Shown here in pieces: positions 13,619 to 17,330 of a DNA stretch of 64,000 nt (position 1 is its first letter; every line of letters begins with the position of its first letter). Source of the stretch: a virus (Duplodnaviria; Heunggongvirae; Uroviricota; Caudoviricetes); IMG/VR virus record IMGVR_UViG_2690316121_000006; one strand, written 5' to 3'. Made by a program: the position numbers and the translations under genes. The notes below the pieces were generated by a model, which saw only the letters and a list, made by a program, of their open reading frames with translations, had not been told where the DNA came from and ran no database searches.

Positions 13619-13780
13619 AACTGGAAGCTCGTAACGCACTTCGGAGTTGCCACTTAGGCGCATGGTCAACCTGGCAACTCGGTGGTTTGTCTGGGAGGAC
13701 TAGGCCCAGCCATGCTTACCGCCGCGCCTGTCGCGGCTAACAGCTAAATCGCTCTATAAATCACGATTCATTGAGGCGAT

Positions 13781-13808
13781 ATTACACTAATAAATTTATT
13801 AGAGCAAT
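13781..13808. promoter_or_regulatory. pair of overlapping, opposed C1-type operators (Op72-like) over a reverse-strand promoter
   Basis: ATTACACTAATAAATTT (plus, 13781-13797) and ATTGCTCTAATAAATTT (minus, 13792-13808, exact 17/17); the minus strand carries TTGCTC-17 nt-TAATAT -35/-10. Confidence 0.6.
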
Positions 13809-16063
13809 ATACCTAAAACGTCATGAGCTACACCTCGAGTGTCCCCCTTACAAGACACAGAACGTCTGGCAAAAAGAGGTTCCACTCTGAAGCCACTGTC
13901 ATGATAAAGCTCTCTGATATTTGGCGCGCCACTGTTAGTAATGAGAACCTTTGCACCTCGACGATGAGCATCCGTCAACAGAGACACCAGGCGTTTTTGC
14001 TCTTCAAACTTAAAGTCATGACCGGAATAGTTCGTGAATCCCTCTGTATTTGGAAGCGGTTCATACGGCGGATCGCAAAAGATGACATCTCCTTCTCCGG
14101 CAGCTTCAATCACCGCTGCAAAATCACCGCATACAAACTCAGACCGCCCTTCCGCACCGAGGAAGGCTTCCATCTCCTGTAATGGGAAATACGGAGTTTT
14201 ATACTTCCCATAACCGACATTGAACTCACCGGCCTGGTTGTAACGCGTCAATCCGTTAAAACAATGTCGGTTCAGGAACAAAAACGCCGCTGCGCGATGT
14301 AAATCATCATAGACTTGTTTGTTAAACGCATTCCGTACTGCCAGGTATCCTTCCTGTGTGTTGTAGTCCTGGAAGAAACGATGTGCCAGAGTGATAAGTG
14401 AATGCGCCTCGCGTTGCAGAGTCTTGTAAAAGTTAATCAGGTCAGCATTCACATCATTTAGCAGATTTTCCTGGTATCCGGCATTCATGAAGACAGCTCC
14501 GCCACCAACGAAAGGTTCAATCAGGCGCTTCCCTTCTGGCAAATAGCGAAAGATTTGTTCCAGAACACCAAATTTTCCACCAGCCCATTTGAATATGGAC
14601 CGTTCGAATTCTGCCGCTGATTTAACTTTTCGCTCTTTTGTTTCACTTCCTTCTTTCTGCCGACATACGGCCTTAGTAATCCGATCGCCAATCCAGCGCA
14701 TTACTGGTATTGCCATACTATTGCCGATCGCTTTGTAACGCGGTCCGTCAGCTGCAAGCATCGCGGCCTCTTCTTCGCTTAAATCTGGATAGTGATTGCG
14801 AAGATATGCCAGTTCATCTGAATTAACTTTTTTACGCTTTTCCGTCGGGATCAACGTATGCCCATCAGGAAAACCTTGCAGCCTTTCACATTCGACAGGG
14901 GTAAGACGGCGGACAGCTACTTCTGCGTTTCTTACTTCATAGCAAACAGCTGTTGGATTTTTAGCCATTAGAGATGGTGAAGTATTCTTAGTTGCAGCAT
15001 GTTGTGTACCGCTCATACGCTCAGGAAAAGCCAATGTAACAAGATGCTCATGGCTTTCTTGCTCACGTGCCCGCAATGTACCATGCCCTTCTGACCAAAA
15101 ACCTGCTCCTGTGCTGCTAAAAACGGCAAGGTCAGTGGCATCTTTAAAATCTCTTGCCTTTACTGTCGATGCGGTTTCATCGTCAATATATTCCCCAAAT
15201 GCTGCCATCCTGAAAGCGTTTACGGCTTTCGTCGATTTCATACTGGGTGGCATGTCAGCGTGTAGGCATGGATTTAGGCTTTCGCCACTGATTGCAGCGC
15301 CATTTGCAATAATGGCGGAAGCGATTTCCTTCTTTTTTCGGCTCGGCGCAATATTCCGGCGCACGCCTTCGAACTCAAAAAGTACCGTTGCGGGATCGAG
15401 GTCTGTTCGAGCACTTGCGACAACAAACACGCGTCGGCGTCGTTGTGCCACTCCGAAGTATTGGGCATCAAGGATTCTCCAGGCCACCTTTCGCTGCGGT
15501 CCATAAATACAACCACACTGCGGCCACTTTGGAGCATGGCAACCGGTTTTGCCATCCCACCGCCAGAACGCGTTACTTTTTCCTGATTCAGGTCGATCAC
15601 CTGGTTCAAATGGCGCATCTTCTCCAGCCAATCCGGCAAGGAAACATCCGAAGGCGTTATCTGCCGATGACAGGACTCCTGGGACATTTTCCCAGACGAT
15701 AACTGTCGGTTTGAGGAAGGACTCAGACCGTTTGTCGTCAATTGCATTTGCAAGCTCCACATACTTCAAAGTTAGCGCGCCGCGTTCATCATCAAGCCCA
15801 CCACGTAAGCCCGCGATACTGAATGCCTGACAAGGCGTACCCCCGACGAGCACATCAGGGGATTCGATTTCCCCAGCCAGGACTTTTTTGGCAAGTTTTG
15901 TCATGTCGCCAAGGTTGGCGACATGGGGCCAGCGGTGCGCAAGAACGGCAGATGGAAAAGGCTCGATTTCAGCAAACCACGCCGGACGCATACCCAACGG
16001 TTCCCAGGCAATACTCGCGGCTTCAATTCCACTGCAAACAGAACCATAGCACAGCTCTTTCAC
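13799..16063 (-). CDS. dmt: bifunctional DNA methyltransferase: N-terminal C5-cytosine (Dcm-type) fused to C-terminal N6-adenine (Dam-type)
   Basis: 754 aa; N-terminal [11 protein letters not shown] and ENVPG motifs (m5C MTase); C-terminal FKWAGGK...EPFVGGGAV and DPPY motifs (Dam-like). Confidence 0.85.
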
Positions 16064-16965
16064 TGCTTAGCCTCTCCACCAAGGGCATTTACCAGAGCAT
16101 CAACCAGGCACGAAATTTCACTGGTCAACAGGAAGAAATCTGCGTCCAGTCGCTGCGCAACATCTTCACTATCAATATCAGAGTTCTGCTCAAGCAATTC
16201 ATCCGCAAATTTGACGCTGGTAAGGCTGAAGTTATGGTCCAGTGTAAATTTAATGCGGTTCTGCCAGTCGAGTGCCAACTTAGTAACGAGCTTGCCAGCT
16301 TCCAGGTGTGTGGAAATTTCATCGCTTCCCAAATCCTGCTTTTTCACTCGGGCAATACCGCCATCCTCAAGCACTGCCTTAAGTTCTGCCGCATCCCCCA
16401 TTTGAAATCCCTGTGGAGCACTACCATCACGTACCCAGTCGGTCAGCGTTAATTCAATGGGATTTTCAACACTCAGGGGAACAACAGGAAGAGAACCCAG
16501 AGACTTACGCATAAGCGCGAGCATATCCTCTGCCTGCCGCGCGCTGGCATTGATATAGATACGTTTAGTTGAACCGTCGTAGATCGCCTGGATAACAGAA
16601 AACTTTGAAAAAGCCCGTGGCAGAAGAGAATGCAGAACTTCGTCTTTCAGGGAGTCCTTCTCTGTTTTCTTCAGTTTACGCGCTTGTTCTTGCTCAAGTT
16701 TTTCAATTTTTTCTTGAATAGCTCGCTGGATAACCGGCGGGGGAAGAATTTTTGTTTCGCGCTTTGCTTCAACAAGGATAAAACCATTTCCATGCATAGC
16801 GATAACTTCGGAATTATCACCAAATGGAGATACAAAACCGAACTTGGCCATATCCTGACTACCGCATGGCGTGAAAAGGATCATTTTCTTTTTATCTTCT
16901 AAGTCGGTCAGATCCGCCTCACGAGAAAGTTTATAAATAGTAATGTTTTTCCAGTGCTTAAACAT
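16060..16965 (-). CDS. recombination-associated protein RdgC-like
   Basis: From the internal Met ([13 protein letters not shown]...) the protein is about 300 aa, the size and N-terminal signature of RdgC; the ORF-track start at 17079 would overlap the upstream ORF by about 120 nt. Confidence 0.7.
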
Positions 16966-17314
16966 GTTGTAACCCTTGAATATCAACCACAGAAAGCTCG
17001 TCTTTGTAGAAAAAGGCCAGGTTGTGGCACCCCCTCGTTTGAGCGTATGAGCTGGGACCAATTTCGTTCTTCCAGACAAATGGCTTCAAATCCGTACGGC
17101 GAAGCATAAAAACGCGATTTGTTCCGCTCTGATTCCCAATGAGGCAAAAGCCTTCTTTCACCTTGATAGCCTGCAAGTTGTCGAGTTCACCGCTGGTTAC
17201 ACGGCTATCGAACTCCTTGCGGCTTATTAGCTCCATCTGCATCTGACGACTCCAAACAAATGCCCATTGAAGGGCGATGGCTGAATGGTACCGAAAACAC
17301 GACATAAAAAACAA
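16958..17314 (-). CDS. hypothetical protein
   Basis: 118-aa ORF, first gene downstream of the operator at 17314-17330. Confidence 0.4.
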
Positions 17315-17330
17315 TATTTATTAGAGCAAT
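17314..17330 (-). promoter_or_regulatory. C1-type operator (16/17)
   Basis: Plus strand ATATTTATTAGAGCAAT, i.e. ATTGCTCTAATAAATAT on the reverse strand, at the head of the reverse operon. Confidence 0.55.

Follow-up and report, generated by a model that had tools for sequence, protein, structure and literature searches.

The locus described here lies in a 64,000-nucleotide stretch of DNA, referred to as the window, that belongs to a P1-like phage (Punavirus). Across positions 13500-17700 (4.2 kb), the nucleotide identity is 100% to phage JL22 and 99.5% to P1. The genes, operators, and promoters of the region are listed below, in the direction of transcription.

17314..17330, minus strand: Odmt (former Op68), a monovalent C1 operator (ATTGCTCTAATAAATAT) with 1 mismatch to the 17-bp consensus, a protein_bind feature in AF234172 at the homologous position
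17285..17314, minus strand: Pdmt, a sigma-70 promoter, position transferred from the P1 annotation
16958..17242, minus strand: uhr, 94 aa, the first gene of the operon, between Odmt and hrdC
16060..16965, minus strand: hrdC, 301 aa, RdgC family by Pfam, NCBIfam, and structure match
13799..16063, minus strand: dmt, 754 aa, a bifunctional DNA methyltransferase (PF00145 and PF02086) with a GTG start and a TAA stop
13781..13808, both strands: Oban ab (former Op72ab), a bivalent C1 operator, from consensus matches and the P1 annotation
13792-13808, minus strand: Oban a (ATTGCTCTAATAAATTT), 0 mismatches
13781-13797, plus strand: Oban b (ATTACACTAATAAATTT), 2 mismatches
13779..13807, minus strand: the P1ban promoter, from the P1 annotation, with a -35 of TTGCTC, a 17-nucleotide spacer, and a -10 of TAATAT

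The three genes are joined by stop/start overlaps. The overlap between uhr and hrdC is 8 nucleotides (ATGTTTAA), and the overlap between hrdC and dmt is 4 nucleotides (GTGA). The same arrangement is annotated in the P1 record (GenBank AF234172), which gives Pdmt, Odmt (Op68), uhr, hrdC, and dmt, followed by Oban ab (Op72ab) and P1ban at the 3' end. Its genes, gene order, operators, and promoters are all matched at homologous positions in the window. In that record, dmt is a "bifunctional DNA methyltransferase" acting on N6 of adenine in GATC and "perhaps" on C5 of cytosine. The annotation of the P7 GenBank record agrees with that of P1 for this locus.

Taken as a whole, the locus is very probably the uhr-hrdC-dmt operon of a temperate phage-plasmid of the P1 type, repressed by C1 and expressed early in the lytic cycle. 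The 2004 P1 genome annotation already contains this operon as well as the two operators, and already treats Dmt as bifunctional. An earlier note, made from the letters of the DNA and their open reading frames, had described a methyltransferase fusion and an RdgC-like protein under repressor control. Its operon anatomy and regulation agree with AF234172, except that uhr, the first gene, between the operator and hrdC, was left out; the function that it proposed holds up in part. The locus can be regarded as a positive control, in that a reading of the sequence located genuine operators and catalytic motifs with single-base accuracy.

Uhr is a lineage-restricted protein. It carries a label as a MazG-like NTP pyrophosphohydrolase (PHROG 2213), which was rejected: no match was found in Pfam, NCBIfam, or PADLOC, and the predicted fold is not MazG-like. 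An exhaustive profile search for distant homologues of Uhr returned none.

The C1 operator is a 17-bp asymmetric site with the consensus given above for Oban a. A scan of the whole 64-kb window allowing up to 3 mismatches returned 7 matches, against 0.32 expected from shuffled sequence, and none of 100 shuffles reached 7. Odmt and Oban ab each pair such a 17-bp match with a position at or beside a promoter. The operator at 17314-17330 and the overlapping opposed pair at the 3' end of dmt, both placed there by the earlier note, are present and correspond to the annotated Odmt and Oban ab. Oban a and Oban b overlap each other, and the pair takes in the final codons of dmt along with its stop.

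Pdmt is composed of a -35 hexamer TTGTTT (17314..17309), an 18-nucleotide spacer, and a -10 hexamer TACCAT (17290..17285). The -35 hexamer adjoins Odmt, with one base common to both. The -35 hexamer of P1ban is formed by the final two sense codons of dmt. To describe P1ban as a consensus promoter was to overstate the match: 8 of its 12 hexamer positions agree with the consensus, and a promoter consensus scan missed it, as it did Pdmt.

According to the P1 GenBank annotation of Op68 and Op72ab, C1 bound at Odmt and Oban ab would repress the adjacent promoters. In a lysogen, C1 on Odmt, beside the -35 of Pdmt, would hold the operon off. C1 would also occupy the bivalent Oban ab, covering P1ban at the 3' end of dmt. 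Upon infection, or once C1 is inactivated, uhr, hrdC, and dmt would be expressed. Citron et al. (1989) are reported to have described the P1 dam methylase as controlled by Op68; a literature search for Op68 found nothing relevant. In cells infected with P1vir, transcripts of P1 hrdC and dmt have been measured at 10 and 20 min (bioRxiv 10.64898/2025.12.28.696737).

What the second operator pair controls, according to the P1 annotation, is the ban operon downstream and not dmt, a point absent from the earlier note. No terminator-like hairpin was found on the minus strand from 13799 to 13620, which extends from the dmt stop toward P1ban and beyond. Transcripts from Pdmt probably continue into the ban operon for this reason. 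A search of Rfam for a DicF-like RNA downstream of P1ban gave no match at the gathering threshold; the weak matches returned, to tmRNA and nuoG, are implausible, with E up to 1.

HrdC matches the Pfam RdgC model PF04381 over model positions 3-298 of 298, with an E-value of 5.6e-98 and 328 bits. It scores 379 bits against NCBIfam NF001462, for which the cutoff is 330. With a full-length match above a curated cutoff, HrdC is a member of the RdgC family, and the earlier claim of an RdgC-like protein upstream of the methyltransferase holds. Divergent phage-plasmids also carry rdgC-dmt, located behind tail genes and without uhr. No C1-type operators were found beside rdgC-dmt in two of these. C1 control therefore appears specific to the P1/P7 lineage, and on these sequences it is not universal to rdgC-dmt. 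Because the pairing persists in lineages without uhr and the C1 operators, rdgC and dmt may form a functional module. The role of HrdC is one that we infer.

Dmt is a single polypeptide with m5C and N6-adenine motifs, as the earlier note had read it. Its halves and motifs are listed below.

14654..16063, minus strand: C5-cytosine methyltransferase half, aa 1 to about 470, motifs aligned to M.HhaI
16036..16013, minus strand: motif I, CSGIEAAS
15841..15809, minus strand: motif IV (PCQ), aa 75-85, with catalytic Cys78
15691..15677, minus strand: motif VI, ENVPG, aa 125-129
15445..15431, minus strand: motif VIII, QRRRR
14912..15337, minus strand: variable cassette, aa 243-384, between motifs VIII and IX, at the target-recognition position of C5-methyltransferases
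14911..14864, minus strand: motif IX
14725..14717, minus strand: motif X, GNS
13802..14599, minus strand: Dam-type N6-adenine methyltransferase half (PF02086, TIGR00571), aa 489-754
14512..14498, minus strand: FVGGG, aa 518-522
14074..14063, minus strand: DPPY, aa 664-667

The N-terminal part of Dmt matches PF00145 with an E-value of 1.5e-36 and 126.9 bits (cutoff 22), and the C5 half scores 118.1 bits against TIGR00675 (cutoff 100.65). These scores, together with the canonical motif order and a variable region between motifs VIII and IX, place it among the C5-methyltransferases. The "Dcm" label given to it previously was correct to this extent, although the protein is not a Dcm orthologue, scoring 22 bits against a cutoff of 710 for the CCWGG model NF007772. 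The C-terminal part matches PF02086 (D12 N6-adenine methylase) across aa 493-725 with an E-value of 1.1e-56, and the Dam half scores 249.8 bits against TIGR00571 (cutoff 114.85). With the FxGxG and DPPY motifs also present, this half belongs to the Dam family.

The motifs of both halves are conserved among 120 homologue cluster representatives. QRRRR and DPPY are present in all 120, while ENV, GNS, and Gly74 are each present in 119. This conservation, and the presence in relatives of an intein at the catalytic Cys, suggest that both catalytic halves are under selection. In the window allele, no catalytic motif of the C5 half is disrupted, and this half probably adds m5C to a target that depends on the allele. 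The searchable literature yielded no report of m5C activity or of a target sequence for this half.

The window Dmt is 99% identical to P1 Dmt (AAQ14041). The two differ by four substitutions, given here as window residue, position, and P1 residue: G74W, S241R, S482P, and M526T. The last of these is the sole difference within aa 489-754. The tryptophan of the P1 laboratory strain is unusual and lies in motif IV, adjoining the catalytic PCQ; the window allele keeps Gly74. G74W might explain the absence of m5C reports for laboratory P1.

The cassette is replaced in P7 Dam and other alleles by unrelated sequence of other length, while the flanks are more than 90% identical. Cassette lengths fall into at least four classes (156, 74, 248-264, and 112 aa). 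The forms can be sorted into a P1/JL22 type, a P7 type, a long type, and a deleted type, and the variants are in frame. It is proposed, tentatively and from the alleles compared, that the C5 half is active in m5C methylation and that its target varies between alleles through exchange of the recognition cassette among P1-like phage-plasmids. If so, dmt would be a diversifying anti-restriction locus.

Tandem recognition units within the cassette, in the style of the multispecific Bacillus enzymes, were considered and rejected. The P1, P7, and long-type cassettes were compared with themselves and with one another in ungapped 20-aa windows. The highest score, 28, lay within the range of shuffled controls (null maximum mean 24.3, largest 36). 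As no statistically supported tandem repeat units occur in the variable region, there is no evidence for multispecificity.

Many alleles from E. coli and Salmonella phage-plasmids contain a homing intein. It is located exactly at the catalytic Cys of dmt and has canonical splice residues, with the Cys as the +1 nucleophile. One example is the 1095-aa allele of phage RCS47, whose intein includes a LAGLIDADG domain; the window allele has no intein. A literature search on this intein found nothing relevant. The swapped cassette, the intein, and G74W could together seed a small project on the diversification of protective methylation in phage-plasmids.

The one role documented for the Dam moiety (PMC12707154, which cites Sternberg & Coulby 1990) is methylation of the GATC sites of pac so that the pacase can cut. 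For this role, dmt is required only in Dam- hosts. The role of pac methylation has been known since 1990; it was absent from the earlier note. After induction or infection, the Dam half would methylate GATC on the fast-replicating phage DNA. Full methylation of the GATC-containing pac would then allow pac to be cut and headful packaging to begin. In the same DNA, m5C from the C5 half may protect against restriction when the phage enters its next host. A CRISPRi screen of P1 found uhr, hrdC, and dmt to be non-essential (PMC10695390), so the operon is dispensable under laboratory conditions. For dmt this is consistent with host Dam standing in for the phage enzyme.

Whether Dmt has a purpose beyond pac can be weighed against several readings. 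It may be mainly an anti-restriction enzyme, in line with the restriction evasion proposed in the earlier note, such that progeny DNA, pre-methylated at GATC and at an m5C target, is spared by the type II systems of the next host. This is possible, if somewhat doubtful. Alleles that share more than 90% identity elsewhere exchange the cassette, as would be expected if restriction systems exerted diversifying pressure; the catalytic motifs are conserved, the best PADLOC matches are "orphan methyltransferase" models, and anti-restriction is the role commonly assigned to phage orphan methyltransferases (PMC12707154). According to the same source, however, P1 is protected against BREX and type I systems by its Dar proteins, which are carried inside the head of the virion, and the documented dam phenotype is packaging rather than plating efficiency on restricting hosts. 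Host Dam, moreover, already methylates GATC in the usual enterobacterial hosts. Restriction evasion is plausible for the C5 half, with indirect support from the exchange of its cassette between alleles. That half could instead be an inactive relic, or a structural or DNA-binding appendage, leaving only the Dam half functional. The "perhaps" of the annotation, the lack of a found m5C report for P1, the Trp of the laboratory strain at an otherwise conserved Gly74, and an incomplete dmt in one sequenced P1 derivative (AF234173) would fit an inactive domain. Such a domain is nevertheless unlikely in view of the window allele, which keeps Gly74 and all six recognisable motifs, and of the cluster representatives, in which Gly74 and ENV (119 of 120 each) and QRRRR (120 of 120) are maintained. 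The in-frame cassette variants, and an intein that keeps its splice residues with the catalytic Cys as +1 nucleophile, would also be unexpected for a pseudo-domain.

The earlier note had Dmt methylating a GATC-rich replication origin. The origin is real: a genuine cluster of 5 GATC sites in 58 bp (19582-19638) lies 2.25 kb away, within an oriR-type origin that has a DnaA box and five iterons spaced 21 bp, and five Dam methylation sites are annotated in P1 oriR (AF234172). It is the assignment to Dmt that is very improbable, because oriR serves the replication of the prophage plasmid in lysogens, and there Pdmt is repressed by C1. P1 lytic replication uses an origin other than oriR. The non-essentiality of dmt (PMC10695390) also argues against this purpose. 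Host Dam is the likelier methylase at an origin that fires in lysogens while dmt is repressed there by C1. That Dmt is the modification half of a restriction-modification system is suggested by its type II-like methyltransferase families and can be almost wholly discounted. No endonuclease is annotated in or beside the operon in P1, P7, JL22, or the two divergent plasmids, where the annotated neighbours are uhr, hrdC, a PAAR-like gene, tRNAs, and tci genes, and the best PADLOC models are those of orphan methyltransferases. The preferred reading is that of the C1-repressed operon whose Dam half methylates pac.

The components of the locus can be compared with known systems. Host RdgC is a DNA-binding ring that restrains RecA. 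HrdC is equal in length to E. coli RdgC (PDB 2owl) and aligns to it with an E-value of 2.9e-113 and 62% identity over 299 aligned columns. Unlike the host protein, HrdC is encoded by a phage, its gene overlaps a methyltransferase gene, and it is under C1 control.

The known relatives of the Dam half are E. coli Dam, DpnM, and T4 Dam, which are GATC N6-adenine enzymes of the D12 class. This half aligns to E. coli Dam (2g1p) over nearly its full length, with an E-value of 3e-58, and FxGxG and DPPY are included. Several positions that reportedly contact GATC in the E. coli Dam-DNA structure are conserved in that alignment, namely the K in KWAGGK, the N, L, and R in NGLxR, and YK. Unlike E. coli Dam, this half is fused to a C5-methyltransferase, and its 244 bits do not reach the 441-bit NCBIfam equivalog cutoff for host Dam. 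Its predicted specificity for GATC is taken from the P1 annotation and PMC12707154.

The C5 half resembles monospecific enzymes of the M.HhaI type in its motif order (I, IV, VI, VIII, variable region, IX, and X) and in its catalytic PCQ and ENV. Like the multispecific methyltransferases of Bacillus phages (PMC12707154), Dmt is a phage-borne orphan with a long variable region. P7 Dam (AAQ07538, 672 aa) has the same operon and operators, the same C5 core, and the same Dam half. Its overall identity to the window Dmt is 90%, and nearly all of the difference is in the cassette. In place of aa 243-384 of the window protein, P7 Dam has an unrelated stretch of approximately 60 aa at the target-recognition position, and for this reason its cytosine target is likely different from that of the window enzyme.

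Window positions 13500-17700 were compared with phage genomes by megablast and show 100% identity to Escherichia phage JL22, 99.5% to phage P1 (AF234172, NC_005856), and 97% to P7; the window is therefore a P1-type phage-plasmid of the genus Punavirus. Relative to the standard P1 map, it runs in the reverse-complement orientation. At the homologous positions (window minus strand), the P1 GenBank record annotates Pdmt, Odmt, uhr, hrdC, dmt, Oban ab, P1ban, and P2ban. The same annotation is present in the P7 record, and the same genes are listed for JL22. The feature is already known: it is the P1 uhr-hrdC-dmt operon with the C1 repressor operators Op68 and Op72ab. 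In the P1 record, P1ban and P2ban drive the next transcription unit, composed of a dicF-like region, tRNAs, tciABC, and ban.

Features of the operon, its surroundings, and the immunity region (window coordinates)
17412-17696, plus: UpfC, divergent from Pdmt; hit to a PHROG family with the label 'PAAR motif' (E 2.5e-30)
Homologous position, minus: Pdmt, sigma-70 promoter in the P1 record; TTGTTT, 18-nt spacer, TACCAT; modest
17314-17330, minus: Odmt (formerly Op68), monovalent C1 operator in the P1 record
17242..16958, minus: uhr, 94 aa
16965..16060, minus: hrdC, 301 aa
16063..13799, minus: dmt, GTG start, 754 aa (ORF list)
Overlapping the dmt end: Oban ab (formerly Op72ab) with P1ban and P2ban, bivalent C1 operator in the P1 record
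At the dmt end, minus: P1ban; TTGCTC, 17-nt spacer, TAATAT; modest
13053-13125, minus: tRNA-Asn, downstream of P1ban, by homology to the P1 annotation
12975-13047, minus: tRNA-Thr, likewise
11272-11344, minus: tRNA-Ile, likewise
34790-34875 and 34944-34996, minus: C4 antisense RNA and its a1/b1 target elements (Rfam), part of the immI immunity region

The 64-kb window was searched for the 17-bp C1 consensus ATTGCTCTAATAAATTT with up to 3 mismatches, using 100 shuffles as a control. Seven matches were identified (shuffle mean 0.32), a number reached by 0 of 100 shuffles. The operator that the earlier note placed upstream of the methyltransferase is among them, on the minus strand with 1 mismatch. 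The overlapping opposed pair it described at the 3' end was also recovered, at 13792-13808 (minus, 0 mismatches) and 13781-13797 (plus, 2 mismatches). These two sites share 6 bp in opposite orientation and span the 3' end of dmt, from its final codons through the TAA stop; its last two sense codons make up TTGCTC, the P1ban -35 element. To call this a consensus promoter was an overstatement, as neither P1ban nor Pdmt passes a simple consensus promoter scan. The P1 record lists both as sigma-70 promoters and attaches to neither the label 'predicted', which P2ban and several neighbouring promoters carry. Four more matches with 1-2 mismatches, at 3463-3479 (plus), 33386-33402 (minus), 35057-35073 (minus), and 62189-62205 (minus), presumably mark other members of the C1 regulon. 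The match at 35057 is just upstream of the C4 antisense RNA region.

No terminator-like hairpin exists on the minus strand from the dmt stop to about 13620, so transcription from Pdmt is likely to continue into the ban operon. A strong terminator-like hairpin at 13599-13618 (minus), TGCCCATCTTCGGGTGGGCG followed by eight T (to about 13591), is located at the end of the P1 'dicF-like' region. Downstream of P1ban, DicF gave no Rfam match, even at permissive thresholds.

The gene uhr, overlooked in the earlier note, opens the operon and is located between the operator and hrdC. It overlaps hrdC by ATGTTTAA, and hrdC overlaps dmt by GTGA, which suggests translational coupling of the three genes. 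HrdC, upstream of dmt, is indeed RdgC-like: it is a full-length RdgC (Pfam E 5.6e-98; NF001462 above cutoff) with 62% identity to E. coli RdgC (2owl). RdgC is a DNA-binding ring that limits RecA. Because HrdC is so close to the host protein, it probably acts in the same way, during early lytic replication. Uhr is an ORFan confined to P1-like elements, with no relatives detectable outside them and no family match in Pfam, NCBIfam, or PADLOC. Its PHROG label, MazG-like nucleoside triphosphate pyrophosphohydrolase, was rejected; it has no Pfam or NCBIfam support, and the predicted fold (modest confidence) is not MazG-like.

Dmt carries both m5C and N6-adenine motifs in a single polypeptide, as first proposed. 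A scripted motif search located CSGIEAAS (aa 10-17), an 11-residue motif (aa 75-85), ENVPG (aa 125-129), QRRRR (aa 207-211), a 16-residue motif (aa 385-400), GNS (aa 447-449), FVGGG (aa 518-522), and DPPY (aa 664-667). Pfam assigns PF00145 (C-5 methylase, E 1.5e-36) and PF02086 (D12 N6-adenine methylase, E 1.1e-56, aa 493-725), and TIGR00675 and TIGR00571 both exceed their NCBIfam cutoffs. Motifs IV, VI, VIII, IX, and X of the C5 half align to M.HhaI in canonical order, and the whole of the Dam half can be aligned with E. coli Dam (E 3e-58), DpnM, and T4 Dam. The N-terminal half scores 22 bits where 710 are required for Dcm and so does not belong to the Dcm orthologues; C5-methyltransferase is the correct term in place of the former label 'Dcm'.

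The C5 half is inferred to be active: of 120 homologue cluster representatives, 119 retain ENV, 119 retain GNS, and every one has QRRRR and DPPY. No m5C specificity for Dmt is reported in the searchable literature. The sequenced laboratory P1 Dmt has Trp74 (VLVWGTPCQ), whereas the window (codon 15842-15844), P7, and 119 of the 120 representatives have Gly74 (VLVGGTPCQ). Speculatively, G74W could be a lab-strain lesion that impairs C5 activity in laboratory P1.

A contiguous PCQ is missing from 16 of the 120 representatives, and these are the 16 intein-carrying alleles. Many P1-like Dmt alleles contain a 341-aa insertion, among them representatives of 1095 and 1013 aa and the alleles of phages RCS47 (FO818745) and Ro157c2YLVW; the related proteins P0001, P0002, P0092, and P0106 carry it. 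Its insertion point coincides exactly with the catalytic Cys in motif IV of the C5 half (GGTP/CFTAGH...VVHN/CQAFS), equivalent to window 15830-15832 (Cys78 codon), and it contains Hint (Hint_2) and LAGLIDADG (LAGLIDADG_3) domains. By these sequence features it is a canonical intein with Cys78 as the +1 residue. The window allele lacks it. No description of a Dmt intein was found in the searchable literature.

The window Dmt aligns with P1 Dmt and P7 Dam at near identity except at aa 243-384 (14912-15337, minus), where P7 Dam has an unrelated stretch of about 60 aa. In the M.HhaI alignment, this cassette falls after motif VIII and before motif IX, where C5-methyltransferases have their target-recognition domain. 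A database search and wider alignment revealed no fewer than four forms of the cassette, unrelated or differing in length; their variable regions measure 156, 74, 248-264, and 112 aa. The P1/JL22 and P7 types are among these forms, as are the long type (248-264 aa) and the one with 112 aa. Alleles with different cassettes are otherwise >90% identical (P1-like). The same comparison sorted the Dam domain into two alleles. Span lengths among 498 matching plasmid records agree with several cassette forms. No tandem units are statistically supported in the variable region, so there is no evidence for multispecificity of Dmt.

Since the locus matches that of P1, which has been annotated and studied experimentally, C1 would repress the operon in lysogens, the operon would be expressed after infection, and the Dam half would methylate GATC. 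Transcripts of hrdC and dmt were measured 10 and 20 min after P1vir infection (bioRxiv 10.64898/2025.12.28.696737). P1 pacase cuts pac only when its GATC sites are methylated (PMC12707154, a review that cites Sternberg & Coulby 1990), and dmt is therefore essential only in Dam- hosts. The non-essential score of uhr, hrdC, and dmt on a standard host in a genome-wide CRISPRi screen (PMC10695390) is consistent with this. Restriction evasion is a plausible role for the C5 half; no test of it was found in the searchable literature, and P1 protection from type I systems and BREX is credited to Dar proteins packaged in the virion head (PMC12707154). A tentative reading, somewhat short of even odds, is that the C5 half works as a methyltransferase whose recognition cassette can be swapped, and serves anti-restriction.

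The earlier note's sequence observations are borne out, and its functional interpretation finds partial support. It had Dmt methylating a GATC-rich origin. Such an origin does exist, with five GATC in AGATCC-type repeats (19582-19638), preceded by the DnaA box TTATCCACA and followed by five iterons at 21-bp spacing. Dmt is less likely than host Dam to methylate it, since oriR is the prophage-plasmid origin and works at a time when dmt is held off by C1. Origin methylation is very unlikely to be the purpose of Dmt. The oriR-type plasmid origin extends over 19568-19790, with the iteron TGTTGACTATACGCGA; more copies, some inverted, are present about 0.7-1.3 kb further along (20462-20784 and 20862-21007) in an incA-like arrangement. 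For oriR, the P1 record lists five Dam sites. Because the GATC spacing in the window is unlike that annotated for P1, its replicon may differ from P1's.

The overlapping rdgC-dmt pair is kept in two divergent phage-plasmids, NZ_AP027688.1 (2088-5541) and CP057059.1 (2088-5265), with 81-87% nucleotide identity in dmt. In both it is directly behind tail genes (tape-measure, baseplate), uhr is absent, and no C1-type operator was found beside it. By this arrangement, the rdgC-dmt linkage predates C1 control. In CP057059.1, a glutamine--tRNA ligase gene (glnS) adjoins dmt. Cronobacter phage JK004 and Citrobacter phage Omnitron also have fused C5 and Dam proteins, with an identity of 52-56%.
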